Positions 1 to 51,028 of a DNA stretch of 64,000 nt are shown here, piece by piece (position 1 is the first letter of the stretch; the number at the start of each line of letters is the position of its first letter). Made by a program: the position numbers and the translations under genes. The notes under the pieces are model-generated. The model was not told the origin of the DNA and ran no database searches. It worked only from the letters and a program-made list of their open reading frames with translations. This DNA comes from Actinomycetota bacterium. Its GTDB lineage: Bacteria; Actinomycetota; Thermoleophilia; RBG-16-64-13. The stretch lies in NCBI GenBank assembly GCA_016278725.1, contig JADQBG010000011.1, positions 6,189 to 70,188 on the forward strand, written 5' to 3'.

Positions 1-811
1 AGAACGCACGATTCACGGGCAGGCCCCAAATGGCGCTTACGCTGGCCAACATCGTCACCTGTATCGGGACGATGGCCGCAGCGTCGGCGAACGGAATCGG
101 GGTCAGGCCCACTGAAGCCGCGGCTGTAACCGCCGTGGCCACAGCCGCGTGCGACCTCCTCTGCTTCTGCTTCAGACTTACTCGCTGCGCGGCAGACAGG
201 GCGTTTCGTTGCCCCTCGGGAACCACCTGATCAGTCAACTCGATCAGGTCATCCAGTCCCATGGACTCCAGCCGGTGACCGTCGTCAAACACGGTCGCCA
301 ATGCCCGAACACGGACAACGTTCTTCACGTCTGACAGAAGATCTGTCACGGCATCCCTAAACCCTTCGTCAGATTTGGCCTTGGTGATCACCGCTATGAC
401 AGGCACCTCGCGCCTCGTGAGCATGTGGACGAGTTCGGACTCCGCGGGCTCAACCCGGCGCGAGTCCTCCACCAGGCAAACCCAGCCGACGTGAATATGA
501 TCGTCGGCATTCTGCTGCGCCCGTCGGTCTTGGATTAACTTCTCCAGTTCCCCTATGGTTTCTCTAAAACTTGCGGCTTCGAGTCCGCGGGTATCGTAAA
601 TGCCGAGGGGTACGCCCTCCTTTGTGATGTACCTCGTGTGTAGCGTAACCGGCCGGCCCACGCCCGTCGTCGCCAGCTCACCCTGGAACACGGCATTAAT
701 GAGAGTGCTCTTGCCAACTCCTGTCTTGCCGGCAACGAGGATGTTGATCCTCCCGAGTCGCCGGAGGGCCTCTGCCAGTACTTCGTCGAGGTCTGGGATG
801 CCGTCTACCAT
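1..811 (-). CDS. P-loop GTPase (MMR_HSR1-like) with hydrophobic DUF697/YcjF-like C-terminal region; runs off the window edge
   Basis: Not in the ORF track. Manual translation from ATG 811 (overlapping the upstream TAG): MVDGIPDLDEVLAEALRRLGRINILVAGKTGVGKSTLINAVF (G1)...IYDTRGLE (G3)...VITKAK (degenerate G4)...AVATAVTAAASVGLTPIPFADAAAIVPIQVTML. Confidence 0.85.
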   Translation of the reverse strand, partial: MVDGIPDLDEVLAEALRRLGRINILVAGKTGVGKSTLINAVFQGELATTGVGRPVTLHTRYITKEGVPLGIYDTRGLEAASFRETIGELEKLIQDRRAQQNADDHIHVGWVCLVEDSRRVEPAESELVHMLTRREVPVIAVITKAKSDEGFRDAVTDLLSDVKNVVRVRALATVFDDGHRLESMGLDDLIELTDQVVPEGQRNALSAAQRVSLKQKQRRSHAAVATAVTAAASVGLTPIPFADAAAIVPIQVTMLASVSAIWGLPVNRAF

Positions 812-3800
812 GTCTCCTCCTCGTCGGTGCCGGCGCACCCAGACGCCAAGTCACCGCCTGCGTTCGCCAAATCCCTGAACTCCAGCCTCCCCTTCGCCAC
901 CAGGCGGTTCACGGTGTCCAGCGCGGCTTGCCTCGCGTCAGGGTCGCCGCAGGCGATCGCCTCGGCGAGGACGGCGCGGGCGTCGTCCTTCCAGCCGCCG
1001 ATGCGCCAGCCTTCCCGGTCGCTGTCCACGAGTGCACCTAGCACGGCCACCGACCTTCGCGGGTGCGACCGAACAAGGACGGCAAGCCGTCGCGCAATCA
1101 TGTACGCGGGGTCTAGCAGGCTCGTGCGCCGCATGACGAACTCCAGCTGCGTGAACGCCCACTCGTCCTCGAACTTGCCAGAGGCGAACCACCACGCGAA
1201 GGCAGCCAACTCGTCGGCTTCACCAGCAAGTAGCCGGGCCGCCCCAGGTGGGTGGGCTTCCCGCCGCGAGGAGCGTTCGGCGGCTGCAAGCGCGAATGAC
1301 CACAGGGCCTTCAGACGGTCGGTGACCTCTGGCGGCACATCCAATGGCCAATCACGAAGGCTGCGGCCCACGTATCCCAAGACATGCTTCCTCAGTGCCG
1401 TAGGTGCTTTGGACCAGAAGTCGGCCAGGAGAGAGTCGATCGGATCGACTGTCAGCTCGCCCCGCCATGCGAACGTCACGAGGTGCTCGCCGAGTCGTTC
1501 TTCGGGACGCTGGCCCACGGGAGCCTCACCTGTGACCGACCCCATCCGCTCCACGGCCCGCTCGTACTCCGGCCGCAACAGTGCGAACACATCGTCGAAC
1601 GGTCTGCAAAACACGATGTAGGTGGTCCAAGCCGCATCCCAGAACGCCCGCTGCTCCTTGTCGACAGGAAACACCATAGGACGACGAGACTCAGCCCACG
1701 AGGGGTCGAGCAAACGGAGCCACGGAAACCACTGGCCGTACACGGAGCGGATGGCGAGCGATGGGTCCCGGTCCACATCGAGGTGGACGTCCAGGGTCTC
1801 CCAAAGCTCATGCAGGGAAACGGACGCCGCGGTGGCGGCGACGTCAGAACCCACACCTTCGTGATGACGCTGGACCCACAGGCCGTAGCGCACTGCAGCG
1901 TGCATCGCCTCGCCTCTGATGGTGTTGATCGATAGCGTAGCGGGATCGAAGCCGCTGCGCCCGCGCTCCTCTTCATCCCGCGGCGTCGGGTCTGGATCAT
2001 TCGTCAGGGGCTCGAGGATCTCCCACACGGTGTCCCGCAAAAAATACGGGATCTCCGCTGGGCCCGGCTGCGCCCCAGCGGCCAACAGACCGGCAATAGT
2101 CTTGCGCGTCCAGCCCCAGTCCGGGTCACGACGATCTCGATGCTCGTCCGACCTTGGTACGGTCGCCCACGGGTCGTGCACCACGGTGCGCGCAACCCCA
2201 AGTGCTGGCTCCCACAGGAACGGCTTCTTCGATTCAACGGCCTGCCGGAGCCCTTGGAGCAGACTGCGAACGTACGTCGCCTCCAAGCCGACGAATTCAG
2301 CAGCCGCCGAGGCGTACGGCTCGGGGTTTTCAGCCACGAGTGTCGTGACTAGTCGCCCGAGATCCTCCGGGGTTGCCGTGCCCCATTCGCCGGATGGCCG
2401 CCACGCGCGGAGGTACGCGGCTAGGTCGGCAGGTGCCACCCCTTCGAGCTCTTCTACCGAAAGCGGGCTCGTTGGGCCGAGTGAGATTCTGCGGTTACCG
2501 GCGAAATCGGGACGCTCGGGCTCGCCTACCTCCTGGACCAGCTTCCCATAGGTTTCCTTCCGGGTCGCAGTTAGATAGGCCAATATCGGCGTGAGCTTTT
2601 CAATCCGCCAGCGGTTCGCATAGGAGACCAGCTCCTCGTCCGTCGGCCCGCGCCCAGCCACCTCCGTGGCGGAAGCCGCGAAGTCATCAAGATCAGGCCC
2701 CGCGTCAATCCAGCCGATAACGACCGACTGCTGCTTGGAATCAAGCTCGCCAAATCGCGTCCGCTGAAGGTGATAGTACTCGTGACGCATACCAGAATCG
2801 TCAAAGAGCATACGCCTTGTCAATCGATCCACCACCAGATCACGGGCCGCATCGGGGAACTTGGAGAGCAGATCCAGCGCAATCCGAAGAAAGACCTTCC
2901 AGCGCCGACCTTCGAGCGTCGCAACCAGAGAACGAACGGAACTCGCGTCTGCCTCAGCGGAGAATTGCACCGCATCGCGAATGCCTCCGACAAGCACGTC
3001 GAGGATGTCTTCACGATCGAAGTTCTGCTCGTGATCCTCGATGGCGGGGCGCCAGCTGCTGGAGTAGTCCTCGGCCAGCCACTCGCGGCTTGAGCCACCA
3101 AGGGTCGGGAACGATTGAACCATGGCGCCCTCAAGCTGCTCGCAGAGCAGCTTGAGAGTCTCAATCGGTGCTGCAGGCGCCAGAGAAGGCAACGCAAGCC
3201 CGAGAGCTTCGCCGTAGTCCCACAAGGTGAGACGCGCACCAAGCCTCTCGCGCCGAGACGGGTCCGCATACCCGCCCGCGTCGAACAGAACCCCCGCAAG
3301 GCTCAAGGCCTCCGCGATCGCCCTGCCACCTGCAAGGTGGCCCACGAGACGACCAAACTCTTGGCCGGCGATCGGCCGGTATGGGCATTCCAGCCACCGA
3401 ATCGCCGCCGGGACAAGTTGGCTTCCCAGTTCTACGGGTAGCGCGAGCGCCACGCGTGTCAGATCAAGGTGAACGCGCACGTCGTCCGTGTTCGGAACTG
3501 CCAAGGCGGCCCGAAGAATCCGGTCGTACGCGCTCGGATACTCCACAGCCATCCGGGCCAGATAGGATGTGATCGGCCAGCCGGGGAAGCGGACGCCATT
3601 CGAGTCCTCGGCAAGTTCCGGAGCCGGCGGATGCTGGAACATCCCCGCGTCGACCAGAGGGCCAATCCAGGCCGGGTCGTTGAGCTTGCCGAAGAAGTAC
3701 CCATGGGCTACGCGATTGCTGGGGATGTTGTTCTTGAGAGTAGAGACATCAGGAGACCTGGTAGCAAGTAGAGCGTCCAGCTGTTCCAGGATCAAGGTGT

Positions 3801-4338
3801 ACCGCTCCTCGAACCGCCCCAGGATCGCATCCAGCACAGTCTGCACCGTTTCCCACCAGGCAAGGAAGTCGCCGTCCGCGCCCCGGAGCCCGAGAGCATC
3901 ACGGTGGGCGCGCCGTGCCAGGCTGCTATCAGAGCCCTGCTTGGCGAGCCCGAGCCACGCCGCCCCGACTGGGTCATGCTCCGGGATCTCAAGTGCTGTC
4001 AAGATCGCGCGAATTCGGTCCGCATGGCTGTGTTGCCTCGAACAAGGCCCTCCGGCCCCTGCGGTTGAACTGCCGGCCAACGGCTCGAGCACGGCTCGCA
4101 GGGCACTCTCGATTTCGCGAACCAGATGGGCCACCAAGTGAGTCGCGCTGGGAAAGCCGGAGCGACCGTCGACAAGCCTGCATGCGTCGGCGAAGAACGC
4201 AGCCGGCCCGGGACCAATCAGCAGCAGCCTCCGACATACCCGCTCCTGGCGGGGGTCGGTGAACTCCCGAAGCTCCGAAGCTCGTTGATCACCATCAAAG
4301 CCGGGGGTATCGCCGGTTGATGGACGGCCCTCAGTCAT
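805..4338 (-). CDS. 1177-aa uncharacterised, probably alpha-helical protein with putative HEPN-like N-terminal domain
   Basis: Long open frame 9 nt after the upstream gene. N-terminal AHLVREIE...LARRAHRD motifs. Remainder is Leu/Ala/Trp-rich; no Walker A seen. Confidence 0.7.
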   Translation of the reverse strand: MTEGRPSTGDTPGFDGDQRASELREFTDPRQERVCRRLLLIGPGPAAFFADACRLVDGRSGFPSATHLVAHLVREIESALRAVLEPLAGSSTAGAGGPCSRQHSHADRIRAILTALEIPEHDPVGAAWLGLAKQGSDSSLARRAHRDALGLRGADGDFLAWWETVQTVLDAILGRFEERYTLILEQLDALLATRSPDVSTLKNNIPSNRVAHGYFFGKLNDPAWIGPLVDAGMFQHPPAPELAEDSNGVRFPGWPITSYLARMAVEYPSAYDRILRAALAVPNTDDVRVHLDLTRVALALPVELGSQLVPAAIRWLECPYRPIAGQEFGRLVGHLAGGRAIAEALSLAGVLFDAGGYADPSRRERLGARLTLWDYGEALGLALPSLAPAAPIETLKLLCEQLEGAMVQSFPTLGGSSREWLAEDYSSSWRPAIEDHEQNFDREDILDVLVGGIRDAVQFSAEADASSVRSLVATLEGRRWKVFLRIALDLLSKFPDAARDLVVDRLTRRMLFDDSGMRHEYYHLQRTRFGELDSKQQSVVIGWIDAGPDLDDFAASATEVAGRGPTDEELVSYANRWRIEKLTPILAYLTATRKETYGKLVQEVGEPERPDFAGNRRISLGPTSPLSVEELEGVAPADLAAYLRAWRPSGEWGTATPEDLGRLVTTLVAENPEPYASAAAEFVGLEATYVRSLLQGLRQAVESKKPFLWEPALGVARTVVHDPWATVPRSDEHRDRRDPDWGWTRKTIAGLLAAGAQPGPAEIPYFLRDTVWEILEPLTNDPDPTPRDEEERGRSGFDPATLSINTIRGEAMHAAVRYGLWVQRHHEGVGSDVAATAASVSLHELWETLDVHLDVDRDPSLAIRSVYGQWFPWLRLLDPSWAESRRPMVFPVDKEQRAFWDAAWTTYIVFCRPFDDVFALLRPEYERAVERMGSVTGEAPVGQRPEERLGEHLVTFAWRGELTVDPIDSLLADFWSKAPTALRKHVLGYVGRSLRDWPLDVPPEVTDRLKALWSFALAAAERSSRREAHPPGAARLLAGEADELAAFAWWFASGKFEDEWAFTQLEFVMRRTSLLDPAYMIARRLAVLVRSHPRRSVAVLGALVDSDREGWRIGGWKDDARAVLAEAIACGDPDARQAALDTVNRLVAKGRLEFRDLANAGGDLASGCAGTDEEETW

Positions 4339-4347
4339 CGGGCGACC

Positions 4348-5511
4348 TCAGGATTCATCGTAGGCCCCCTCCGCCGTGACCCGCCCCGAAGCCCCGCTCG
4401 CTTCATCATCCGACCGGTGACTATCGTTTGCGGATTGCGGAGTCGGGTCGCGCCCGATGACATTGCGAAATCCATCAGGAGTGCCGCATTCTCGCACAAG
4501 CAGAGCTATAAAGGCCGCAGTGTAGACATAATCGTCGTGGGCCTCATCGTAGGAACAATAACGCTCGTCGGTCTTCCGGCGGGCCTTTCCTCGAGCGGAA
4601 GCAGCAGGTCGAACTCTGAAGTGCTTCCAAGCGACCGGGAATTCCGCCGAATGCCGGAATCTGAAAGGTATCTGACCCTCTACCTCCTCGCAGACTCCTT
4701 TCGGGCGCAGCCTACCAAGGTTGGACACTGGCCTCTCTTTCTCGCGGAGAATGATCCTCCCGGTCTTCTCAAGAGCTGCGTATGCAGCCCGTTCTTGAGG
4801 CAGGAGGTCCTCCTCCTGCACGAAGCTCACCGCGAGATCAGCATCAGTTCTCGGGGCTCTCTTCTGCACGATGTCCACGCGGAGCTCGAATCGTCGGTCG
4901 TTCACCACGTCGGAATCGAACCCCGATCGGTACTCGATGAAGAAATCGTGCAGCTTTCTTGGTAGACCTTGTTGTGCCGCGATGAGCCGGACGACCCCTT
5001 CGCGGGAGAACGTCCCGAGCGCAATGGGTAAGTGCACCTGGTCAGCTATGGAATACGTCGGTCCGAATTGCGCGACCAGCTCTTCCTCGAAGTTGATCAC
5101 CAGCGCCTGTGTGAAACCGGCAGCTGCGACCATGAGCCCCGCCTGGTATCGATGCTCTATTCGATTACGGAGTTTGATGGTCAGCTGGAGGTTGTTGCGC
5201 ACTGGGTCTTTCGGGTCCACCCAGCGCTCCTGGACGCACCGGTCGAGTTCCCACGACTTGCGTTCACCATCGACCTTCAGATACCGGGTTGGACTCTTTC
5301 GGTCTCTGTAGTAGTAGCTAACCCCATCTCGTTCGAACTCCGCTTGCAGCAAATGGGTCCAAGCAATGTGCATGTGTACCAGAAAGGATTCGAGCGGTTT
5401 GCGGGCGCCGGGGCGGTTGTGAAACTCGACCGCGTTCAACGCCTCCTCACGAGACGACTCAACCATCTGGTGCCATCGGGGCCGCCGTGCCACGAGCTTA
5501 GCCCCTGCCAC
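4348..5511 (-). CDS. DUF3644-like HEPN-domain protein (putative RNase effector)
   Basis: ESSREEALNAVEFHN...ESFLVHMHIAWTHLLQA N-terminus and HEPN R-x4-H motif RNRIEH. Confidence 0.8.
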   Translation of the reverse strand: MAGAKLVARRPRWHQMVESSREEALNAVEFHNRPGARKPLESFLVHMHIAWTHLLQAEFERDGVSYYYRDRKSPTRYLKVDGERKSWELDRCVQERWVDPKDPVRNNLQLTIKLRNRIEHRYQAGLMVAAAGFTQALVINFEEELVAQFGPTYSIADQVHLPIALGTFSREGVVRLIAAQQGLPRKLHDFFIEYRSGFDSDVVNDRRFELRVDIVQKRAPRTDADLAVSFVQEEDLLPQERAAYAALEKTGRIILREKERPVSNLGRLRPKGVCEEVEGQIPFRFRHSAEFPVAWKHFRVRPAASARGKARRKTDERYCSYDEAHDDYVYTAAFIALLVRECGTPDGFRNVIGRDPTPQSANDSHRSDDEASGASGRVTAEGAYDES

Positions 5512-5556
5512 GCATACTTGAGCGCCACCAACCGTCGCGTGACCCGTGGCTAGTCA

Positions 5557-9564
<4,008 letters not shown>

Positions 9565-9725
9565 AGTCAGCGAACCTCCGTCGAACGACGGATCGATGAC
9601 TTCCCGGGACCGGCCTTGTCCCGGCCGGCCGGTCTCGCGAGAAGGTCTGGGAGTCCGCCCTGTGTCTCGCCTGTCATCCGAGCCACCCCTCAAGAGTCTC
9701 CAGCTCTAGCTCACCACTGGACTGA

Positions 9726-10151
9726 CTACTCACGATCGCGCAGGTCAATCCGAATCCGTTCCATCACGACCTCCCATGGCTCGCCGGCGTCCGGGTTGCG
9801 CTCGTGGTCGGCGATCCGCTCGTCGAGCAGCGCCCGCATCTCGGGCGTCAGTGGCCAGTTCTCGCGGTCCGGGTCCATACCGTCCCAGAGGCTTTGAGCC
9901 ACCTCGATGCCGTGGGAGACTCGGGCGAAGTCGATGTCGGCCACGGTGACGTCGACGCTCACGTCCACCAGTTCGGCCGGCCGGTGCACGCCGCGCTCCG
10001 CGAGGACCTCAAGGCAGGCTTCGATCGCCTCGCGGACGTTCGCTATCGCTTCATCCCGGGTGGCGCCCTGACTCACGCACCCGGGTAGGGCGAGGCACTC
10101 GGCGATCCAGATGCCGTCCTCGTCGGTCCAGAGGTTGACGAAGAAGTCCAC
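9726..10151 (-). CDS. HicB-like antitoxin fused to an addiction-module antitoxin-like domain
   Basis: N-half WIAECLALPGCVSQGATRDEAIANVREAI (HicB RNase H fold). C-half SLWDGM...LLDERIADHERNPDAGEPWEVV (addiction module component). Confidence 0.75.
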   Translation of the reverse strand: MDFFVNLWTDEDGIWIAECLALPGCVSQGATRDEAIANVREAIEACLEVLAERGVHRPAELVDVSVDVTVADIDFARVSHGIEVAQSLWDGMDPDRENWPLTPEMRALLDERIADHERNPDAGEPWEVVMERIRIDLRDRE

Positions 10152-10166
10152 GTCAGGCCTCCCGTC

Positions 10167-10391
10167 TCAGGCCGCGTACCGCACGATCTCCACCTCATGA
10201 TGGCGCTCCAAGGCCTCATCAGCCAGGGCGTAGACCCGGTCCGCGACTGCGTCATTGAGGTAGTACTCGCCGCAGTCGTCGCAGACTTCTGCGGGCACGT
10301 CCTTGACCACGACGATGGACTCCCCCCGCTGCAGGGTGACGGTCACTCTTCCTGGACTGGTCTCTCCGGTCTTGCAGATCGTGCATTTCAT
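10167..10391 (-). CDS. YgiT-type zinc finger / MqsA-like antitoxin
   Basis: MKCTICK...VVKDVPAEVCDDCGEYY; 4-nt overlap with the DUF4258 gene. Confidence 0.85.
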   Translation of the reverse strand: MKCTICKTGETSPGRVTVTLQRGESIVVVKDVPAEVCDDCGEYYLNDAVADRVYALADEALERHHEVEIVRYAA

Positions 10392-10675
10392 GAGTGCCTC
10401 CGGGCCTTGAAGTCGTCAGTCCACACTGCGGGATCGGGTTGATACACCGTGACAACTTGACACAGACCAGATTCCGGCTCACGCGCGACCACCACGTGGA
10501 TTGCGCGTCCTTGATGTTCACCAAGGATCAGACAGCTCGGAAACGGTGTGTCATCAGGGTACTCCGTAATCACCTCGCCAGAGCGGATCACCGAGCGCAC
10601 CACCCGCGGAGGGAGGCCACGCTCGAACATCCTTCCTATCGCGTGGCGCGAGAACCAGAAGTCACGACATTCCAC
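10388..10675 (-). CDS. DUF4258-family putative toxin
   Basis: FSRHAIGRMFER...GEVITEYPDDTPFPSCLILG...IHVV...VTVYQPDP. Confidence 0.85.
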   Translation of the reverse strand: MECRDFWFSRHAIGRMFERGLPPRVVRSVIRSGEVITEYPDDTPFPSCLILGEHQGRAIHVVVAREPESGLCQVVTVYQPDPAVWTDDFKARRHS

Positions 10676-10772
10676 GAGCTAGACCTCCCCACCCCACGTC
10701 GGTTCCCACCGGGACGGCCAATCTGAGGATACAATGAAGCCGCCCAGTGACCGAGTGCCAAGGGAGCCCGCC

Positions 10773-10985
10773 ATGCACGGCTCATTCACCGCTGTCGTGA
10801 AGCACGAGGCCGAATGGTGGATCGGTTGGATCGCGGAGGTGCCCGGCGTCAACTGCCAGGAGGCCACCCTGGAGGAGCTGCTGGACACTCTCGCCGTGAC
10901 GTTGAAGGAGGTGCTCGAACTCAACCGGCAGAACGCCTTGTCCGAGGTCACGCCGCCATACGAGGAGGTGACCATCGTCCTCTGA
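10773..10985 (+). CDS. Short HicB-family antitoxin (no adjacent HicA seen)
   Basis: FTAVVKHEAEWWIGWIAEVPGVNCQEATLEELLDTL; AGGGAG RBS before ATG 10773. Confidence 0.8.
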   Translation: MHGSFTAVVKHEAEWWIGWIAEVPGVNCQEATLEELLDTLAVTLKEVLELNRQNALSEVTPPYEEVTIVL

Positions 10986-11073
10986 GGCCACGCGGCCAAC
11001 TCGGGTACCACGCCCATCTGATCGCCCGCGCCTCTCACAGTTCACAACCGCCTCCATGTCCGACAGTCCTCAC

Positions 11074-11388
11074 TCATGCGACCTGGAGCGGCTTGATCCG
11101 TTCCACCTCGGCGCCGATCGCCCGTTCCGCGTCCCAGAGGTCGACGGCGCGCTGCGCGTTCAGCCAGAACTCCGCCGAGTTGCCAAACAGGCGGGCGAGA
11201 CGCAGGGCCATCTCCGGACTGAGGGAGCGTCGCTCACGCAGCAGCTCATTGACCGTCTGGCGGGAGACCTCGAGCGAGGCAGCCAAGCCGGCGACACTCA
11301 AGCCGTAGTCAGGCAGAAAGTCCTCCCGCAACATCTCACCGGGATGCGTGGGCCGGATCTTCCGCTTGGTCGTGTTGGGGATGCTCAT
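11074..11388 (-). CDS. higA: HigA/VapI-family antitoxin
   Basis: RPTHPGEMLREDFL...HTH...MALRLARLFGNSAEFWLNAQ. Confidence 0.92.
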   Translation of the reverse strand: MSIPNTTKRKIRPTHPGEMLREDFLPDYGLSVAGLAASLEVSRQTVNELLRERRSLSPEMALRLARLFGNSAEFWLNAQRAVDLWDAERAIGAEVERIKPLQVA

Positions 11389-11403
11389 GCTGGCTCCTCT
11401 GTT

Positions 11404-11685
11404 TCAGTGATAGTCCGTGATCTCGACTTCGAATGCATCGCCGTCAATGAACTGGAAGCAGACGCGCCACTGGTCGTTGACCGAAATCGAGTACTGGCCT
11501 TTGCGGTCTCCTTCGAGCGCGTGAAGTCGATTTCCGAGCGGTGCACGCAGGTCCTCGGCTCGGGTCGCCAGATCTATGTACTCGAGCTTTCGCACGGCCC
11601 GCTTGATGATGTCCGGCGGCAATCGACGCGATCGACCGGTCAGATAAAGAGACTGCGTCTGGGCATCGGCGAAGGACCTGATCAC
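11404..11685 (-). CDS. higB: HigB (RelE-family, plasmid-killer-type) toxin
   Basis: MIRSFAD...NRLHALEGDRKGQYSISVNDQWRVCF...EITDYH, toxin-first order with higA. Confidence 0.92.
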   Translation of the reverse strand: MIRSFADAQTQSLYLTGRSRRLPPDIIKRAVRKLEYIDLATRAEDLRAPLGNRLHALEGDRKGQYSISVNDQWRVCFQFIDGDAFEVEITDYH

Positions 11686-11691
11686 CGGTCA

Positions 11692-11720
11692 AACGTACTC
11701 TGTCACGTGACACATGTCAA
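11692..11720 (-). promoter_or_regulatory. sigma70-type promoter of higBA with palindromic operator
   Basis: Minus strand TTGACA-N17-TACGTT; the spacer contains the perfect palindrome TGTCACGTGACA (11701-11712); GTG start follows 6 nt after the -10. Confidence 0.75.
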
Positions 11721-14572
11721 CTGGAAAGAACCCGCGGCAAGAACACATACAGCCCCAGCACATCCGCCGGCAACTCGGGGGCCACGGTGGCGGCCTTTCC
11801 CGTCGCCCGGGTCCAGGCCTGACGCACCCGCTCGTGAGAACCCGCCAGGGCCGCCGTCCGCTCCCCGGCCACCTGATCGAGGTGGGGCCGCACCTGATCG
11901 AAGTCGACAAGGATCCGCTCCACCGCGGCCTGCGCCTGGTCTGGGGCGATGTTGCCTGCGGGCGTCGCGGTCAGAAGGCGCGCTACCTCCCCGTCGGCCA
12001 GCCACTCCGCCTCCGACGGCGCGCCCCGGAAGGCAACCGCCCGGCACTCCTCGGCCAGAAGGGCGCCCCGACGACCGAGGGAGTCGGAGATGTGAAATCG
12101 CAACCGCAGGAGCAGGAGCGTGGTGCGCTTCGCGACGTCGCGCGTGCGGACAACCCCGAGACGCTTGGCGACCGCCTCGTCGAGGGCGTCCAGGGCCGAG
12201 TCGGCCACGTGGGTGGCCAGGCCCTCCACCACCGGGTGGGTTCGCGAGAGGTAGAGTTCCCCATCGCCCACCGGAAGCTCGAAGCGTCCCCGGAAACGGG
12301 TCTCATCCAGCAGCCCCATCGCCTCACGCAGGGCGGGTGGCGACTCGGCCAGATCGACGGTCACGGTGCCGTTGCCGGCCACCACGGCTTTGTAGGCTAC
12401 GAGGGAGTCGCGCACGAACGTCTCCACGTCGAAGCCGCTGCCGATCGCGTTGCGCACTTCGGCCAACTCCCCCCTCACCTCGTCCACCTTGATCGACTCC
12501 TGGGCGAACATGGTGCGCGAGCGTTTCTCCCGGTCGGCGGCCGCCTCCCATTGGCGGTGGGCGTCGTCGCGCTTCCTCTCGGCGAGATCCCCGAGATCCA
12601 GCATGAGCTGATCGGGTCGCCGTCCGGCCTGCTCGCGGAGCAGGAGCCCCTCCAGCAGGGCCTCCATCAGCGCCTCGGTATCCACCGGAACGGGCACAGA
12701 CACCCCGGTTCGCTCGCGGATCTTCTTGTGCTTGCGCAGGAGCACGTCGAGCACGATGCCGTCGATCTGGTTATCGGTGCCGAAGTAGGTGAGCACGCGC
12801 ACGGTAGGGTTCTTCTGGCCGTAGCGGTCGACGCGGCCTTCGCGCTGCTCGTGGCGGGTGGGGTTCCAGGAGAGGTCGTAGTGCACCACGGCGTCGAAGT
12901 GCTCCTGCAGGTTGATGCCCTCGCTCAGGCAATCCGTGCAGACAAGCACGCGGCGCTCGTGCTCCCCAAGGGCGGCGACCCGCTCCTCGCGCTCGGCCGG
13001 GGGAAGCGTGCCGGTGACCGAGACCACCTCGACATCCTTGAGGGCCTTGCGCAAAACGCCGGCCACGTAGTCGGCCGTATTGATAAAACGACAGAAGACG
13101 ATGGGGCGGTAACCGTCTTTGAGAAGGTCGGCCACCAGGGTGGTGGCCTTCTTGAGTTTGGCGTCCTTGGCGCCGTGAAGCGCTTCGGCCTCGCGGGCCA
13201 TGTCCAGGAGACGGCGGCGGGCGGAGGCGTCGGCGCTCTGGTCGGCGGTGTCGCCCGCCTCGTCGGCGTCGGCCCCCGGGATGAGGTCGGTGCCCTCGGC
13301 GGTGTCGGCATCCATGAGGTCGAGGACGGTGCGGCGGCCGATCTCGTCGGCTTCCTCGGCCGTGGCCGTGTCGGCGGTGGCGGCGCGGGTGCGCATGGTG
13401 GCGGCCGCGGCGGCCGGGCTCGAAGCCAGGGAACGCAGGAGGGCGAGCGCCGACCACCAGCGGACGCGCTGGCGGCGGCGGTCGGTGGCGGCGTCGGTGA
13501 CCGTCTCGCGGGCGTAGTGCAACACCCGCTCGAAGAGCTTCTTGTATTCGGGGGAAAGCTGGTAGATCTCTTCCCGTTCCTCCCGGTCGGGGAAGGGAGT
13601 GTCCTCGTCGAGGTAGCTGCGGATGTCACCCCGCCGGCGCTGCACGAAGTGGCGGGCCAGGCGCCGGCGATGGACCCTATTCTGCTCGCCGCCGAGTTCC
13701 ATCGGCAGCTGGAGGAAGTCCTTGTCGAGGAACCCCAGGAGCGAGCGGAAGGCCTCTTCTTTGCCGCTGTGGGGGGTGGCCGTCACCAGAATGAGGTGAC
13801 GTGTCGGGTCGGCCGCCAACGCGGCCACCAATCTGTGGCGCTGGATCTGGGTGCTCCGATCGCCGGCGGCGGAGGCGCAGGTGTGGGCCTCGTCGACGAT
13901 CACCAGCTCAGGGCAGGCGTTCTTGAACTCCTCGATATGCCGAGGCGACTTGATGAAGTCGGTCGACACCACCACGAAGGGATGGCGGTCGAAGAGGGAC
14001 TCGCTGATGCCGAGGCCGCGCTCCAGGCGGGCGGCGGTGGAGGCGAGCACCAGCTCGGCGTCGATGTGGAACTTGTCGGCAAGCTCCTTCTGCCACTGCT
14101 CGGCGAGCGCCGGCGGACAGAGCACGGCCAGGCGCTCCACCTCACCCCGGGCGAGGAGTTCCTTCGCGATCAACCCGGCCTCGATGGTCTTGCCGATGCC
14201 CACGTCGTCGGCGATGAGCAGGCGCACCGGGTCGAGCTTTAGGGCCATGAGGAGCGGCACCAATTGGTAGGGCCGGGGCTCCACGCCGATGGCGGCGAAG
14301 GAGCGGAAGGGCCCGGCGCTCGAGCGGAACCCCAGGCGCACGGCGTCGCGCAGGAGCCGGGCCGAGCGGTAGTCGCCGATCTGGGCGGAGTCGCGGGGGT
14401 CGGGCAAGGCAAAGGTGGCGGGCTCCACCGACTCGAGGGCCTGCAGGATGCCGGCGACCTCGTCCTCGGTGCCGCCCAAGGGGCGCAGAACCAGCAGGTC
14501 GCCTTCGGACTCCGGCAACACTACCCACTCGCGCCCGCGGGCGCGCACCAAGGAGCCGACGGCGAAAGTCAT
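11717..14572 (-). CDS. SNF2-family helicase, DISARM DrmD-like
   Basis: IADDVGIGKT, VDEAH, TATPHSG, SEGINLQ, WNPTRHEQREGRVDRYGQ. Start ATG 14572 overlaps the upstream TGA (ATGA). Confidence 0.9.
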   Translation of the reverse strand: MTFAVGSLVRARGREWVVLPESEGDLLVLRPLGGTEDEVAGILQALESVEPATFALPDPRDSAQIGDYRSARLLRDAVRLGFRSSAGPFRSFAAIGVEPRPYQLVPLLMALKLDPVRLLIADDVGIGKTIEAGLIAKELLARGEVERLAVLCPPALAEQWQKELADKFHIDAELVLASTAARLERGLGISESLFDRHPFVVVSTDFIKSPRHIEEFKNACPELVIVDEAHTCASAAGDRSTQIQRHRLVAALAADPTRHLILVTATPHSGKEEAFRSLLGFLDKDFLQLPMELGGEQNRVHRRRLARHFVQRRRGDIRSYLDEDTPFPDREEREEIYQLSPEYKKLFERVLHYARETVTDAATDRRRQRVRWWSALALLRSLASSPAAAAATMRTRAATADTATAEEADEIGRRTVLDLMDADTAEGTDLIPGADADEAGDTADQSADASARRRLLDMAREAEALHGAKDAKLKKATTLVADLLKDGYRPIVFCRFINTADYVAGVLRKALKDVEVVSVTGTLPPAEREERVAALGEHERRVLVCTDCLSEGINLQEHFDAVVHYDLSWNPTRHEQREGRVDRYGQKNPTVRVLTYFGTDNQIDGIVLDVLLRKHKKIRERTGVSVPVPVDTEALMEALLEGLLLREQAGRRPDQLMLDLGDLAERKRDDAHRQWEAAADREKRSRTMFAQESIKVDEVRGELAEVRNAIGSGFDVETFVRDSLVAYKAVVAGNGTVTVDLAESPPALREAMGLLDETRFRGRFELPVGDGELYLSRTHPVVEGLATHVADSALDALDEAVAKRLGVVRTRDVAKRTTLLLLRLRFHISDSLGRRGALLAEECRAVAFRGAPSEAEWLADGEVARLLTATPAGNIAPDQAQAAVERILVDFDQVRPHLDQVAGERTAALAGSHERVRQAWTRATGKAATVAPELPADVLGLYVFLPRVLSS

Positions 14573-17500
14573 GCCCGACCCCCGAACACGTACGGATACC
14601 GATCGATAATCGCCCCCCAGTCGTCTTGATGATGGAAGCGGATCACGGTGAACCCGCCGTCGTCCATGCAGACATCCCGAGCCGCATCCCGCGCCTGGCG
14701 CTCGGGGTAGTCGTGGGGCGGACCGTCGATGTAGACGGCGGCCTGGTAGTCGTCGTAGAAGAAGTCGGGGCGGGTGGAGCAGGCTTCGATCAACCGCTGC
14801 GCCGACGAGGGCAGGCGGAGATCGCAACCCTCCAAGAAGTCGAGCCAACGACGCTCCAGATCCGAGCCCGCCAGGCGCTTGAGTTCGGCCAAGTGCTGGG
14901 CACGAGGTCGTGCACTGCCGGAGACGGCCACCCGCGCCTGCGCGAAGCGCACCATCAGCTCGCGGATCAGTTGACGGTCGAGGAAGCCGTGGTAGCGCTG
15001 GTTCTGGTAGCTGAGCAGACAGTCGTAGCAGGCGGCTTCGCAGTCCTCGGTCGCCCCTAGCGCCCGACGTTGGTCGGCGCCGGTAGTGGGATCGAAGTGG
15101 CAGATCGCGAGGGCTCCCCGGGCCACCTCGGCCACGGCGCCGGGGGAGTCGAGCAGACGCCGGAGCGCCCCCGCTCCCCCCTCCGCGGCCTCATATAGAA
15201 GGATGCGCCGGGGGTCCTTGTCGGAGGGTAGGCTCTCCACTGCCAGTTCGCCGTCCTCCAGTTGGTAGAGGGCTTGGATCGCCCTCTTCAACACCGCCTG
15301 CAACGAGAGCATCACGTCGGCGTCGACAGGCTCCGCCAAGTCGACGATCAGGCAGTTGCGCCGGTCGTCCACGAAGGGGATGACCCGAGTGGTTCTGGCG
15401 GAGAGGGGATCGTCCTCGTCGGCCTCGATCGCGTCCTTGTCGCTCGCCCAGTAGCCCCGTTCGGTGTCCAGCACGAAGCCGAACTGATCCTTGTTCTTGC
15501 GGCGCGCCAAGCCCAGGTTCGCCCGCCAGATGGTGGCCGCGTGGCCATAGGTGAGCGTCGCCAGCACCGCCCCGTCGGACTCCACCGTGGCCTTGTGAAA
15601 CTTGGCCTCTCCCCCGCGCTCGGCGAAACGCATGCCCGTGAGGAGTTCATACCCGTAGCGCATGCGCTCCTCTTCGTCGGAGTTGATGTGGTCGCGGCGC
15701 TTCGTGGAGACGTTCTGCATGCGGAAGAGGTTGGTGTAGGCATGCCCGAGGAGCGTACCGCAGCTCTCGCAGAGGTCGGGGCCGTCGCCCTCGGGGATCT
15801 CGTGCAGGTAGCCGCAGTGGCCGCAGAGCTTGGCCTTGCGGGTGATGACGTCGTCGTCTCCCACCGGGAGAATGGCCTTGTTGATGGTGTAACGGGATCC
15901 CTCGTGATAGACGATGGCCCGGGGACCGAACTCGGAGATAGCCAAGAATCGGGGGCGCGAGAGGAACTCGTCGCGTCGACCTCCCCGGAACCGGCGCCCC
16001 GGGATATAGGCGGAGAGGGGTAGGCGCGGGAAGCTGTAGCCGGGCAGAAAGCCTTCACTCGCGAAATAGCGATAGCTGTAGAAGTCGGACTGCGCCAGGG
16101 TGTCAACCTGGGTGAGCAGGTTCAGCTGTTGTTCGGCCTCAGCGCGCAGGCGCTGGGCCTCGCTCTTTGCCTGAGCGGTCGCGGAAGCGTCCAACTTGAT
16201 CTTCTGTTGCGCAACGGCCTGGGCGTGAGCACTGCGGAAGAGGTCCCGCCAACGCTGACACGCCCGGTCGAACTGCCGCACCACCTGGCCCAGCACCTCG
16301 TCGAGCCAACCCACGGTGTACCAATCGGAGTCCTCGAGTTCGTCGCGGAAGGTAGCCAGGATGGTCTCGGCCCGCGCACGCGCCCGTGCTCGGGCCCCCT
16401 CCGACGAAAGGCCGTCCAGAAGCTGCTCCTTGATCGCCAGGGTCGGCTCTTCCCCCGCCAGGTCAAGCACGTCGACCAGCGACCTCCCAAGTGACTCACC
16501 GGTCTCGGCCAGCCAGACGGCATGCACGTGGGCGCGCACCAGATCCTCGTTGGCCAGATCGATGCGGGGAGGCGCCACGGCGCCCGACACCATGAGGCCC
16601 GGCCGCCGGAAGAAGTACTGGTCGTGAGGACTCCCGGTGGAACAGTAGGTGTAGACCAGGGCGGGTTGACCACTCCGGCCCGCCCGGCCGCTCCGCTGAG
16701 CGTAGTTGGCAGGCGTGGGCGGCACGTTGCGCATGTTCACCACGTTGAGCTCGGCGATGTCCACTCCCAGCTCCATGGTGGGCGAGCAGAAGAGGATGGG
16801 CAGGCGACCCTCCCGGAAGCGGTCCTCCCGCTCCTGACGGTCGCCGCTGGTTACCTGCGCCGTATGCTCGCGGGCCTCGAGGCCCACCAAGGTTTGCGCC
16901 ACCTGCCGATAGAAGTCGACGAAGAAGGAGTTGGGGTGGGCGCCCTCGTCGGGCAAGTTCGGGACCCGGATAGGGTCGTGAGGCACACAGGAGCCGTCCC
17001 CGGCCCGCCAGACAAGCGCAGACGCCGGCACCTGATAGCCGCGGGTGTCGCCGTCGGTGCGGGGCGCCGCCACTTCTTCCACCAGACCGGCCACGCGCAG
17101 GGTCTTCAACAGATCTCGGATCACCGTCTCGGTCTCGGGCACCCTGAGCTTCCCGCCGAAATCGGGGAACGTGGCCGTCCGCCGAAGATAGCGGGCGAAA
17201 CCGCTCCGCGACGAGAGGTAGAGGGCAGAGATGTCGTCGCCTTTGGCCTTCGACCGAGCGAAGAGGGTGGCCGCCCGCTCCCAGGGCTCCTTGTCGTCGA
17301 TGGCCCACGGCGGACAGAGCCGCTGATTGCTCTGCAACCCGAGACGCTCCTGGAACCCGGGTTCCAGGTAGTCCACTTTGATGGCGAGTCCGCGGCGCAT
17401 GAAGTCGAGCAACGCACCGGCTACTTTGGAGCGCGTCTCGGGCGAGGCTGTGACCAACGCAGGGTGCACCCCAGCCCACTCCTCCTCGGCCGCGCAGAGC

Positions 17501-19824
17501 TCTTCCAAAGACTGATAGCCGATCTGCAGAAGGCCGGACTGCTCTAGGTTGGGCAAGGTAATGCGCCATCCACGCTTCAGATCTCTATAGAGGCGGTAGC
17601 CCAGAGCATTACGGAGGGCGGCCTGCGTGTCGTGAAGGGCCGCGAACTTCACCTCGGGGTCCTGCGCGTAGGTCGCGAGGGGCAGCGCGAGGGCGTCGAA
17701 CACCTTGGCCGCCAACTCGTCGTGACGCAATCCGGCCTCCCCGGCAGCCGCCGCTGCTCGGTAGAGAGCCGAACGGAGCAGTCCGACCTCCACGAAGTCG
17801 TTGAAGTGCCCTGCCTGCAGGGAGGCGTCCTGGCGGTTGTCGGTAAAGCTGAGCAGCTTCCGCGCCCGCTCGGCGAGGTCGCTGTCGCGAAGCGTGCGGA
17901 TGGTGGAGAGACCCATGACCGTCGTCGCCGAGCTACGACCTCCGGAGCCCAGCTGCCCCAGCTTGCCGAAGTCGGACCTCACCGTGAACGCGTAGGAGAC
18001 ACCACATGAGAGACAGAAGCGGAAGGTACCGGGAATGAATGCGGCCCCCACCCCGTCGGCGACCTCGCCGCCATCAGGTCCGATATTGATCACCCGTGGG
18101 AGAGACTTGACCCGGTCCTTTCGCAGCTTGGACCCGCCGCCGGCGCCGGCCTCCAGCCAGTCGTCAGGCACACGCGTCAGAACCTCGGCAGCGTCGAGCG
18201 GCCACGGCTTCTCGGTGCTGATGTAGAGGAGCCCCGGCTCCGGCCCGCCGTCAACCGTGTCCACCCCCGCCAGCCGATCGGAGAGTCCGCGCGGCGAGTA
18301 TTCCACTCCGTCCGGGCTCCCCCGCCCCGACGCCACCGCGGCGTAGTACTCCTGACCACACTCCCTACAGAACACCAAGGGAAGGAAGACCCGGCCACGC
18401 TCCCCAGGCACGAACTTCTGCCCCTGCAGCGATATCTCGCGCCGATCTTCGGTCTCCGGTGTGGCGTAGACCGTCTCTCCCCGGCCGACGAACTGATGCA
18501 GCCGGAATGCGAACACTGGGAGGCCGGTGTCGGGGCTAAGACAGCCATACGCACCGAGCAGCAGATTCTCCAGCGCTTCCGCGCAGATCTCCTCGGGGAC
18601 CCCGCTCTCAGCTTCGAGCTTAGCCGCCGCTCCGTTGGCGCCCCGGATGCTGATGGGTTCGGCCCGCACCAACCGCCCCGTCGCCGGATCGGACACGACG
18701 CCGAAAGCGCTCTCTACCCAGGAGGCAAGAGGGTCCTGGACGAACTCCTCGTGGTCCATGGCCGGCGGCCACCCGTTGCGCGCGACCTCTTCGACCCGCG
18801 CGCTGAGCAGGCGCATGAACTCAACGTCACTACCGTCGTGGGGCGGCGTCGCCCGCTGCAGGGTCTCGCCGATCACCCGCTCGGGTGCTACCGAGGCACC
18901 GAAGATCTGCGTGGCCACTTGAGCCACCTCCGCCCGCTGCTCATCCAGCGTGCCGCCACCGGCGAGGGTGGCCGAGGTGCCGACTATCTGCAGGTCGGCG
19001 GCCGCCAGCCGGTCGCGGACGCGCCTCACCAGCAGGGCTACGTCGGACCCCTGCCTGCCTCGATACGTGTGCAGCTCATCGAGCACGAGGAACTTGAGAC
19101 CTTGGGCGGCCTTGATCAGGTTCTTCTCGCGCTCGCGGGTGAGGATGAGCTCCAACATCACGTAGTTCGTCAGGATGATGTCGGGCGGGTTGGCCATAGC
19201 CTCGACCCGGGCCTCGTCGTTCTCCTGCCCGGTATAGCGGGCGAAGGTCACCGGAGCCTTGCGGTCGGGATAGCCCTCGCACAGGAACTTCTCGAGTTCT
19301 CCCAGCTGACTGTTGGCGAGCGCATTCATGGGATAGACCACGATAGCCTGCACGCCGCGCCCCGACCCGCGACGCAGAACATGGTCTACGATGGGGACGA
19401 TGTAGGCGAGGCTCTTGCCCGAGCCGGTCCCGGTGGTCAGGACGTAGTTGGCCCCGGTGCGTGCCGCACGGATGGCGTCGACCTGATGGCGGTGGAAACG
19501 CAGGAGGCGGCCGGCGCCGCCGTTCGGTGTCGCGATGCCGCCGCCGCTTTCGGCACCCGAGGCGCTGGGTTCAGCTCCGCCCTTGCCGACACGGAAGATG
19601 CGCGCACATTCGGGGTGCAGAGTGCCGTCGGCCACCAACTCATCGACCGTTTCAGCGGGTTCGAAGGTGGGGTTGAGCTGTACCAACGGCGCCGGCCAGA
19701 GTAGCCCGCCGTCGATCGCGCCCTCCACCGTTTCGCGGATGCGCTCGTCCTTGATCCGGATGAAACTCTCAACGTACTCCCGGTATTCCTCGACGAGTTG
19801 GTCGCGCAGGTGGAAGACATCCAA
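14569..19824 (-). CDS. DEAD/DEAH-box helicase fused to DUF1998 and a C-terminal Vsr/DUF559-like nuclease domain
   Basis: TGTGSGKS, DELH, SAT, MELGVDI, QRSGRAGR; several CxxC pairs; DUF1998-type EGGAG...CEAACYDCL; C-terminal RPDFFY...YIDGPPH. Likely TTG start at 19824 (track start 19893). Confidence 0.9.
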   Translation of the reverse strand: MDVFHLRDQLVEEYREYVESFIRIKDERIRETVEGAIDGGLLWPAPLVQLNPTFEPAETVDELVADGTLHPECARIFRVGKGGAEPSASGAESGGGIATPNGGAGRLLRFHRHQVDAIRAARTGANYVLTTGTGSGKSLAYIVPIVDHVLRRGSGRGVQAIVVYPMNALANSQLGELEKFLCEGYPDRKAPVTFARYTGQENDEARVEAMANPPDIILTNYVMLELILTREREKNLIKAAQGLKFLVLDELHTYRGRQGSDVALLVRRVRDRLAAADLQIVGTSATLAGGGTLDEQRAEVAQVATQIFGASVAPERVIGETLQRATPPHDGSDVEFMRLLSARVEEVARNGWPPAMDHEEFVQDPLASWVESAFGVVSDPATGRLVRAEPISIRGANGAAAKLEAESGVPEEICAEALENLLLGAYGCLSPDTGLPVFAFRLHQFVGRGETVYATPETEDRREISLQGQKFVPGERGRVFLPLVFCRECGQEYYAAVASGRGSPDGVEYSPRGLSDRLAGVDTVDGGPEPGLLYISTEKPWPLDAAEVLTRVPDDWLEAGAGGGSKLRKDRVKSLPRVINIGPDGGEVADGVGAAFIPGTFRFCLSCGVSYAFTVRSDFGKLGQLGSGGRSSATTVMGLSTIRTLRDSDLAERARKLLSFTDNRQDASLQAGHFNDFVEVGLLRSALYRAAAAAGEAGLRHDELAAKVFDALALPLATYAQDPEVKFAALHDTQAALRNALGYRLYRDLKRGWRITLPNLEQSGLLQIGYQSLEELCAAEEEWAGVHPALVTASPETRSKVAGALLDFMRRGLAIKVDYLEPGFQERLGLQSNQRLCPPWAIDDKEPWERAATLFARSKAKGDDISALYLSSRSGFARYLRRTATFPDFGGKLRVPETETVIRDLLKTLRVAGLVEEVAAPRTDGDTRGYQVPASALVWRAGDGSCVPHDPIRVPNLPDEGAHPNSFFVDFYRQVAQTLVGLEAREHTAQVTSGDRQEREDRFREGRLPILFCSPTMELGVDIAELNVVNMRNVPPTPANYAQRSGRAGRSGQPALVYTYCSTGSPHDQYFFRRPGLMVSGAVAPPRIDLANEDLVRAHVHAVWLAETGESLGRSLVDVLDLAGEEPTLAIKEQLLDGLSSEGARARARARAETILATFRDELEDSDWYTVGWLDEVLGQVVRQFDRACQRWRDLFRSAHAQAVAQQKIKLDASATAQAKSEAQRLRAEAEQQLNLLTQVDTLAQSDFYSYRYFASEGFLPGYSFPRLPLSAYIPGRRFRGGRRDEFLSRPRFLAISEFGPRAIVYHEGSRYTINKAILPVGDDDVITRKAKLCGHCGYLHEIPEGDGPDLCESCGTLLGHAYTNLFRMQNVSTKRRDHINSDEEERMRYGYELLTGMRFAERGGEAKFHKATVESDGAVLATLTYGHAATIWRANLGLARRKNKDQFGFVLDTERGYWASDKDAIEADEDDPLSARTTRVIPFVDDRRNCLIVDLAEPVDADVMLSLQAVLKRAIQALYQLEDGELAVESLPSDKDPRRILLYEAAEGGAGALRRLLDSPGAVAEVARGALAICHFDPTTGADQRRALGATEDCEAACYDCLLSYQNQRYHGFLDRQLIRELMVRFAQARVAVSGSARPRAQHLAELKRLAGSDLERRWLDFLEGCDLRLPSSAQRLIEACSTRPDFFYDDYQAAVYIDGPPHDYPERQARDAARDVCMDDGGFTVIRFHHQDDWGAIIDRYPYVFGGRA

Positions 19825-19924
19825 TGCTGCTATACCCCCTAATGACTCCGCGGGCCGGAGCGAGCGCCCGGTTGGCCAGATGTCCTTAGCCATGGGTGCC
19901 CAGCCATGGGTGCCATCCTATAAC

Positions 19925-21095: not shown

Positions 21096-21169
21096 TGGGC
21101 CCACCAGGACTCGAACCTGGGACCAGCCGATTATGAGTCGGCCGCTCTAACCAACTGAGCTATGGGCCC
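21096..21169 (-). tRNA. tRNA with CAT anticodon, most likely tRNA-Ile2 (lysidine-modified)
   Basis: GGGCCCATAGCTCAGTTGGTTAGAGCGGCCGACTCATAATCGGCTGGTCCCAGGTTCGAGTCCTGGTGGGCCCA; resembles ileX-type tRNAs; CCA not encoded. Confidence 0.9.
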
Positions 21170-41874: not shown

Positions 41875-42474
41875 CTACTCGTCCTCCTCAGGCTCGGCAG
41901 CGGGTTGGGAGCCGTTGCCGTCACCTTCCGGCGCCAGGGAAGTGCGGAATTCCTTGATCGACTTGACCGCAGAGTCCGCCGTCAGCTTGCCGTAGGTGCG
42001 ATCGTTGATCATCATGACCGGCGCCATTCCGCAGGCTCCCAAGCAGGCTACGTTCTCCAGAGTGAACAGCATGTCCTCGGTATTCTCACCGTCTTCGATA
42101 CCCAGGTGGCGGCCGACCTCGAGGCTGACCAGGGGCGCACCGGAGACGTGGCAGGCGGTGCCGTGGCATATGCGCACCACGTGTTTGCCCCGAGGAACCA
42201 GACGAAACTGCGCGTAGAAGGTAGCCACGCCGTACAGCGCGCTCAGCGGTTGGTCCAACTCCGCAGCGATAATCGCCATGGCCGGATCGGGCAAGAACCC
42301 GTAGATCTCTTGCGTCCCCTGAAGAAGCGGGATGAGGGTCCCCGCCTGCCCTCGGTACTTAGCGAGCAATTCCCTGAGCGGCTCGGCGTCGAAGCCCTCC
42401 ATGTCGATCATGGGAGGGTGTTCGGCCACTCCGTGAGAATTTTCACCAGTCCGCGTAGCTTTCGTTTCCCACAT
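41875..42474 (-). CDS. NuoE/HydC-like [2Fe-2S] subunit
   Basis: YGVATFY, CHGTACH, ACLGAC; true start may be downstream. Confidence 0.92.
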   Translation of the reverse strand: MWETKATRTGENSHGVAEHPPMIDMEGFDAEPLRELLAKYRGQAGTLIPLLQGTQEIYGFLPDPAMAIIAAELDQPLSALYGVATFYAQFRLVPRGKHVVRICHGTACHVSGAPLVSLEVGRHLGIEDGENTEDMLFTLENVACLGACGMAPVMMINDRTYGKLTADSAVKSIKEFRTSLAPEGDGNGSQPAAEPEEDE

Positions 42475-42513
42475 AGAAACCTCCGGACGATCGAAGAACT
42501 AGCGATCGACGCG

Positions 42514-43317: not shown

Positions 43318-43330
43318 GTGTCCTCCTCTT

Positions 43331-44215: not shown

Positions 44216-44219
44216 ATCC

Positions 44220-45623: not shown

Positions 45624-45646
45624 CCTCCTCCGGTTTTCCCTCGTAC

Positions 45647-45679: not shown

Positions 45680-45694
45680 GCTTCGCTTTTTTGG

Positions 45695-51024: not shown

Positions 51025-51028
51025 TTAC

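Follow-up and report, generated by a model that had tools for sequence, protein, structure and literature searches.

A defence island in an Actinomycetota genome with a probable ARMADA Type I operon followed by three probably independent genes

The window analysed here, a stretch of 64,000 nucleotides from a contig of an Actinomycetota genome, opens with six large minus-strand genes, designated P1 to P6 in the order in which they are read: a YprA-family helicase-nuclease (P1), a SNF2 helicase (P2) and an N6-adenine DNA methyltransferase (P3), followed by a DUF3644 protein (P4), a large protein with a predicted HEPN-fold head (P5) and a GTPase (P6) (Table 1). The region is a mobile-element-borne defence island, and its main system is very probably an intact copy of ARMADA Type I, with the three genes downstream of the methylase as independent neighbours. 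The initial annotation had described six co-directional genes with tight junctions. The six minus-strand open reading frames (ORFs) do exist, and most of the junctions are borne out by their coordinates. P1 and P2 share an ATGA overlap at 14569-14572, where the minus strand reads ...gggcATGActttc... and the start codon of P2 overlaps the stop of P1; P3 and P4 are separated by 45 nt (5512-5556) and P4 and P5 by 9 nt (4339-4347), and the start of P6 overlaps the stop of P5. The tight junction claimed between the SNF2 and methylase genes did not stand, the intervening stretch (9694-11716) being 2,023 nt long and holding six small ORFs of toxin-antitoxin type, of which one lies on the plus strand, a cassette of about 2 kb that had been missed. 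A scan for promoters and terminators performed no better than chance: it gave 0 promoter-like sites where 1.4 would be expected, and 7 terminator-like sites where 8.6 would be.

Table 1. Features of the defence island and its right edge, in window coordinates
Feature	Coordinates	Strand	Size	Basis and remarks
P1, ArmC-like YprA-family helicase-nuclease	14569-19893	-	1774 aa	DEAD, Helicase_C, MZB/DUF1998, C-terminal DUF559/Vsr-type domain
P2, ArmA-like BrxHII/RapA/DrmD-like SNF2 helicase	11717-14572	-	951 aa from ATG	PADLOC, NCBIfam
P3, ArmB-like PglX/DrmMI-like N6-adenine DNA methyltransferase	5557-9693	-	up to 1378 aa	Pfam, PADLOC
P4, DUF3644 (HEPN) protein	4348-5511	-	387 aa	PADLOC PDC-S19, Pfam; RNRIEH motif
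P5, HEPN-fold head (about residues 29-192) and long HEAT-like solenoid	805-4338	-	1177 aa	PADLOC Dsr1, predicted fold
P6, GTPase with DUF697 hydrophobic tail	1-838	-	376 aa in full	Cut by the window start; first 279 aa in the window
HigB	11404-11685	-		Pfam HigB-like_toxin 2.9e-19
HigA-like HTH	11074-11388	-		Pfam HTH_3 4.1e-8
HicB/DUF1902-like	10734-10985	+		Pfam
DUF4258	10388-10675	-		Pfam 3e-21
MqsA/YgiT-like zinc-finger	10167-10391	-		Pfam MqsA_antitoxin 3.4e-6
HicB-like and Unstab_antitox fusion	9726-10151	-		Pfam HicB_lk_antitox 1.1e-6, Unstab_antitox 1.9e-6
tRNA-Met	21096-21169	-		ARAGORN; just beyond the right island edge

P1 carries the Pfam domains DEAD (9.7e-26), Helicase_C (6.8e-14) and MZB, the MrfA zinc-binding domain or DUF1998 (2.3e-10), and, towards its C-terminus, DUF559, a domain of the Vsr type (PD-(D/E)xK), at residues 1710-1755 (23.2 bits against a cutoff of 20.6). 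Its GSGKS, DELH and QRSGRAGR motifs and its CxxC pairs are intact and conserved across 52-63 relatives, and it matches the DruE models of PADLOC at up to 1.2e-92. P2 is matched in PADLOC by DpdE (PDLC02853, 1.2e-268), DrmD (1e-93) and BrxHII (6.9e-56) and in NCBIfam by RapA (3e-36) and by DrmD, the latter at 351.3 bits against a cutoff of 610, and its GIGKT, DEAH and QREGRVDR motifs are likewise intact and conserved among relatives. A Dpd system, which the DpdE match would suggest, was considered and dropped, as there are no 7-deazaguanine genes and P1 matches DpdJ merely in part; the PADLOC DpdE model is read as one built from the helicase family to which P2 belongs. P3 is matched by Eco57I (4e-16), N6_Mtase and MmeI_Mtase in Pfam and by DrmMI in PADLOC (3.3e-67), and its DPACGSG and NPPW motifs are conserved in 80 relatives. 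The length given for P3 is that of the longest ORF, its 5' end being uncertain because the relatives mostly align from residue 40-55 or so. Target-recognition domains lie C-terminally in MmeI- and PglX-type enzymes, and the last 550 or so residues of P3 are presumed to be such a region. Weak PADLOC matches of P3 to mad2, and of P6 to LeoBC and mad8, were not taken as membership of MADS. The earlier description of the core as DISARM-related, with helicase and DUF1998 in one polypeptide with a fused nuclease, next to an SNF2 helicase and an N6-adenine methylase, agrees with both Pfam and PADLOC; the DELH, NPPW and RNRIEH motifs that it listed are present in the predicted proteins and, as it had noted of PLD genes, Pfam finds no PLD domain in any of the six.

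The architecture received its name in September 2025, when Bell et al. (2025, bioRxiv 10.1101/2025.09.15.676423) presented ARMADA, the "disARM-related Antiviral Defense Array", as a clade of its own between DISARM and Druantia. In that preprint, Type I is defined by a YprA homologue in first position, behind which stand a BrxHII-like helicase and a PglX-like methylase. The first helicase carries a C-terminally fused Vsr nuclease, predicted to be active, and is described with BrxA-like, beta-barrel zinc-module and MarR-like inserts; the type is stated to be abundant in Actinomycetota. The experiments reported there concern Type II alone (E. coli, four genes), for which each of the four genes was needed, as were the Walker motifs and NPPW, and which protected without cell death. 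The locus under study has the same three components as Type I in the same order, with a Vsr-type nuclease at the C-terminal end of the helicase; it likewise lacks ArmD, belongs to an actinobacterial-type host, and differs in the six toxin-antitoxin-type ORFs embedded between its SNF2 and methylase genes. The core, which had been put forward as a system without a name, thus corresponds to ARMADA Type I and is not a new system, though it is real and widespread.

The genes of the validated ARMADA II and of Druantia III were located in E. coli ATCC 8739 as a comparison set. In BLASTP, P1 is 24-34% identical to ArmC, P2 27% to ArmA and P3 24% to ArmB, and the locus retains the Walker and NPPW motifs on which Type II depends. 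In contrast to the E. coli order (ArmA-ArmB-ArmC-ArmD), the genes at this locus are permuted, the helicase has 1774 aa instead of 2113 and the GajB-like/RelE-fused ArmD is absent; an ArmD-type helicase was not found in the genome, in which merely weak helicase-core matches occur on another contig.

The trio was followed further through its methylase. A scan of species-representative genomes with P3 returned 589 relatives, 80 loci of which were kept for comparison, and tblastn placed P1 homologues in 63 and P2 homologues in 73 of these 80, always upstream of the methylase and in the same order, most of the misses being loci that end at contig ends. To judge from the record titles, the hosts span many phyla. 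The earlier supposition that the three-gene core may be widespread is therefore well founded.

Other identities for the core were weighed against ARMADA Type I. A variant of DISARM class 1 or of Druantia would be in keeping with the PADLOC matches to DrmD, DrmMI and DruE quoted above, which come from a library dating from 2023 that contains no ARMADA models. DISARM class 1 (drmD, drmMI, drmA, drmB, drmC) indeed shares the SNF2 helicase, the N6-adenine methylase and the helicase and DUF1998 module with this locus, but here the helicase and DUF1998 are fused, and a Vsr-type nuclease replaces the PLD protein DrmC. The operon is not DISARM, because there is neither a separate DUF1998 gene nor a PLD gene and both the DrmA and the DrmD cutoffs of NCBIfam are missed, P1 reaching only 15.4 bits against the DrmA cutoff of 950. 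As for Druantia, P2 to P6 matched no partner model (DruH, DruA-D, DruM/F/G), the neighbours of P1 being an SNF2 helicase and a methylase, and the clade that Bell et al. assign to the architecture is separate; a variant of either system is accordingly very improbable. It is scarcely credible that P3 is a stand-alone type IIG restriction-modification (R-M) enzyme with both helicases as unrelated neighbours: PADLOC REase_MTase_IIG models do match P3 at up to 2.3e-47, but the trio travels together in one order across many phyla, at the frequencies given above, and P1 and P2 overlap.

A further alternative, in line with the proposal of the initial annotation, is that all six genes form one integrated system, in which HEPN ribonucleases and a membrane GTPase would act as an abortive-infection layer fired when the core is inhibited, in the manner of PrrC with EcoprrI. 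The shared strand and close spacing of the genes would suit it, as would the HEPN-like character of both P4 and P5 and the fact that PDC-S19, the family matched by P4, goes back to genes that lie within BREX, DISARM or type I R-M systems, the PrrC precedent being discussed in the same source (Payne et al. 2024). Against it, relatives of P4, P5 and P6 were found at none of the 80 methylase-relative loci at E<=1e-5, even though sequence continues past the methylase for 3 kb or more at 53 of them and for 6 kb or more at 44. The seven genome loci of P5 homologues hold neither P4, P6 nor ARMADA genes, and neither P4 nor P6 occurs at any of 80 metagenome loci of the P5 family (62 groups at 95% DNA identity). 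ARMADA adjoins a P5 relative at just two of these 80, L110 and L111, which belong to one lineage; there, the closest metagenome relative of P5 (49% identity) follows an ARMADA SNF2 gene, a gene resembling T6 of the toxin-antitoxin cassette and a methylase (70% identity). That pairing speaks for the six-gene system, but the genes intervening between the methylase and the P5-like gene of L111 are two unrelated ORFs without a Pfam match, and no GTPase follows. P5-family genes also stand directly after type I hsdR-hsdM-hsdS operons at 15 of the 80 loci, or in 8 of the 62 groups (for example L126:1517-10283), a further point for the six-gene system; since P5 relatives follow both type I R-M and ARMADA, P5-type genes are often appended to methylation-based systems and not to ARMADA in particular. 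Moreover, the two P6 relatives examined lie among housekeeping genes, and ARMADA II is described by Bell et al. as protecting without cell death. An integrated six-gene system is consequently improbable, and the inclusion of the three downstream genes in the system was given up; the initial annotation had itself stated that its proposal would fall if the locus agreed with a system already described, or if the downstream genes and the core failed to co-occur, and both were found.

Several points weigh against reading the locus as an intact ARMADA Type I operon with independent neighbours. The Type I assignment was made from gene content, gene order and BLASTP against E. coli, and the literature searched yielded, in its accessible text, no experimental test of Type I, Type II alone having been tested. 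In BLASTP, the similarity of P1 to E. coli DruE (114+100+38 bits) about equals that to ArmC (145+112 bits); the DruE match covers less length, and a shorter match with a score this near fits the placement of ARMADA beside Druantia by Bell et al. The Vsr/DUF559 match of P1 is weak (E 6.5e-5) and the predicted catalytic region just moderately conserved. P3 to P6 share a strand with short gaps and one overlap, so that co-transcription would be possible, and the P5 relatives of L110 and L111 likewise lie downstream of an ARMADA methylase, so that the association of ARMADA with P5 predates this genome. Finally, the HEPN call for the head of P5 rests on fold matches at Z 8-10, a range usual for helical bundles, and the canonical Rx4-6H motif is absent from that head, where the local consensus is R-A-H-R.

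For the preferred reading, ARMADA Type I, a mechanism may be proposed. The analysis itself established gene content and order, intact motifs, the conservation of the trio, its lack of co-occurrence with the neighbours and predicted folds; every activity and the trigger are inferred. By homology to ARMADA II and by the logic of DISARM and BREX, P3 would use its C-terminal recognition region to mark a motif in the host DNA, and the two helicases together with the methylase would engage invading DNA that lacks the modification. The Vsr-type nuclease might then cut this unmodified DNA, and immunity would be direct and non-abortive. The operon, an intact copy from a small high-GC genome, would lend itself to testing Type I.

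The recognition half of the methylase has a history of its own. The closest relative locus among those compared, L005, belongs to a Thermoleophilia metagenome-assembled genome (MAG), to which P1 is 83-85%, P2 91% and residues 1-800 of P3 74-93% identical, whereas residues 800-1378 of P3 (window 5557-7290) are only 25-55% identical to L005:10085-14101. The operon outside this C-terminal half is 74-98% identical to L005, and the break in identity falls close to NPPW (residue 818). With L111 this C-terminal region shares 63-75% identity, and with L003 mostly 61-77%, one 100-residue window dropping to 36%. The pattern is read, on these sequence comparisons, as an apparent exchange of the target-recognition half of P3 between close relatives, a swap that one would predict were the DNA motif determined by that half. 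The P1 homologue of L005 (180-5500) aligns in two parts that differ in reading frame and join near residue 470, representing either a frameshift or an assembly error of the MAG.

The stretch between the SNF2 and methylase genes (9726-11685) is a type II toxin-antitoxin cassette inserted into the operon. It comprises a HigB/HigA pair, a pair of DUF4258 and MqsA-like genes and two HicB-like antitoxin-type genes, and the GC content falls to 0.637 over 10001-12000. L005 has toxin-antitoxin genes at the same junction (T1 at 94% identity over part of its length, T5 at 66% and T6 at 57%), and the T6-like gene of L110 and L111 also lies at the SNF2/methylase junction. A HigB/HigA pair with 47% and 36% identity to that of the window was seen directly after a P5-family gene on an unrelated metagenome contig (L138:4306-4879).

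Insertions are frequent in ARMADA I-type operons, the toxin-antitoxin cassette being the form taken here. Gaps of more than 300 nt occur at 16 of the 63 P1/P2 junctions and gaps of more than 400 nt at 11 of the 73 P2/P3 junctions. Ten inserted ORFs were scanned, and seven proved to be UvrD-type helicases of some 690-745 aa; the others are GmrSD-like, Fic/DOC and weakly NucS-like, one of each (L041:1045-3609, L007:5827-6987, L047:6019-7170). The seven helicases lie between the P1 and P2 homologues in 7 of 63 helicase-first operons (L023, L028, L041, L047, L065, L070 and L071) and are 32-35% identical to E. coli ArmD, six aligning over nearly the full length and that of L071 over about 600 aa. 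They are ArmD homologues, which means that some helicase-first operons carry ArmD between the helicase and SNF2 genes, and the helicase-ArmD-SNF2 order is a cyclic permutation of that of ARMADA II.

Turning to the downstream genes one by one, P4 is a separate resident of the island and a candidate for single-gene defence. It matches PADLOC PDC-S19 over its full length (4.4e-88, residues 9-357 against profile positions 4-346 of 353) and Pfam DUF3644 at 2.6e-41. DUF3644 is listed by Anantharaman et al. (2013, PMC3710099) as a HEPN family found in R-M operons, while the PDC systems of Payne et al. (2024) have the rank of candidates and were obtained from genes situated inside BREX, DISARM and type I R-M systems. 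The two anti-plasmid Ishtar proteins, Ist1 and Ist2, are described in a further preprint (bioRxiv 10.64898/2026.07.06.735840) as having an N-terminal HEPN head (DUF4145 or DUF3644) and a beta/alpha domain at the C-terminus. P4 resembles PDC-S19 and Ishtar in its N-terminal DUF3644 HEPN domain, its C-terminal domain of about 190 aa and its standing as a single gene beside a methylation-based system; PDC-S19 is itself merely a candidate, and the likeness to Ishtar is by description and not by sequence. The HEPN-like genes that had been reported after the methylase are thus recovered, P4 by its Pfam family and P5, more tentatively, by fold match.

P5 fits the architecture of the Avs7/Dsr1-sensor proteins with a HEPN-like head, judging from its predicted model. 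It matches PADLOC Dsr1 at 3.7e-29 (residues 423-930 against profile positions 545-1020) and falls into no Pfam family, with no SIR2 match and 21 bits in NCBIfam Dsr1, where the cutoff is 1400. The AlphaFold (AF2) model is all-helical (pLDDT 89.2, pTM 0.81), and its body resembles importin-type HEAT solenoids; the fold search with the full-length model returned generic HEAT-repeat proteins only and no Dsr or Avs chain. When the head was modelled alone (pLDDT 84), the top fold matches were HEPN toxins (5yep_B at Z 9.9, 8xdj_A at 8.9 and 7ae2_A at 8.8), HEPN appearing in the titles of 7 of 50 rows that run from Z 9.9 to about 6, where values below about 13 are common for helical bundles. Foldseek returned nothing at E<=0.001 for the head model, and against PDB sequences the family profile gave 0 matches at E<=0.1 and the head profile seven, all at E>=0.6. 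Of 61 family members, 2 match HepT-like_2 by hidden Markov model (HMM). H71, R74, W128 and H145 are invariant in both the full-length and the head-only alignments, whereas H67, E75 and R146 show no variation in one alignment and 90% conservation or more in the other. The heads of P5 and the P4 protein showed no relation in hhalign (probability 0.13). An identification of the head as the pPIWI-associated nuclease PF18165, to which a protein atlas had given a score of 0.91, was rejected, the HMMs matching none of 61 family members at E<=1.

The sensor of Avs7 is, according to Li et al. (2026, Nature, PMC13581612), common to Dsr1 and to a HEPN-like protein of Streptomyces, and SeAvs7 and EcDsr1 are set off by the major capsid protein of the phage. 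P5 shares with these proteins the large helical sensor behind an N-terminal effector, of which the Streptomyces protein is a HEPN-like version, and differs from them in having neither a SIR2 domain nor a STAND NTPase, its head carrying H71/R74/H145/R146 in place of Rx4-6H. By analogy, P5 would most likely be a single-protein abortive-infection ribonuclease triggered by a phage structural protein. The family has at least 139 members, some 1100-1170 aa long, and no functional name is attached to any of them; its named relatives are entered as "hypothetical protein", apart from one with MarR-type domains entered as "predicted transcriptional regulator". In the phylum it is rare, being present in 12 of 401 genomes, a tally that includes the host's own genome and is the only one to take in the unpublished genomes G336 and G001. 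The outcome is a family with a putative HEPN head and a Dsr1-type sensor, as yet without a functional name, that is found repeatedly just after methylation-based operons.

It is a doubtful but conceivable extension that P5-type proteins guard restriction systems, the ribonuclease firing on a disabled complex or on capsid protein, as PrrC does with EcoprrI. Were this so, the two-layer idea of the initial annotation would be right in function, though the pairing is not a fixed system. In the hsdR-M-S operons that precede P5-family genes, the HsdS proteins are far more divergent than the HsdM proteins. At L098:8571-13385, and also in L097, the P5-type solenoid forms part of a protein of about 1600 aa whose N-terminal part of about 650 aa is read from the translation as thioredoxin/YyaL-like; this would be another head on the same type of sensor.

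P6, the complete ORF of which lies in L002 at 5896-7026, matches MMR_HSR1 (5e-11) and DUF697 (3.2e-5; 24.2 bits, below the cutoff of 27.7) in Pfam, and the earlier reading of the last gene as a GTPase with a DUF697 membrane-type tail is upheld with that reservation about the tail. It is rare, occurring in 4 of 401 genomes of the phylum with the host's own included. The two relatives examined adjoin aconitase-family genes, a lytic transglycosylase, a PLP decarboxylase and a GGDEF-EAL protein, and neither of these two P6-homologue loci has a P5-like neighbour; in this small sample of two loci, there was no sign that P6 is a defence gene.

With respect to the setting of the island, P1 is followed on its right by an SLH-domain fragment, the tRNA-Met and then housekeeping genes by Pfam (metX/metY-type, NAD synthase). 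On the left, at the contig start (L002:475-5724), three consecutive tyrosine-recombinase-like ORFs and an IS21-type pair, as read from translations, precede P6. With recombinase and IS21 genes at one edge and the tRNA-Met at the other, the region may be an integrated element measuring 27 kb or more. A repeat scan of positions 1-22000 revealed no att-like repeats and no other convincing pairs. Elsewhere in the window, the AT skew is strongly negative (-0.1 to -0.19) over about 20 kb (38000-58000), unlike the remainder.

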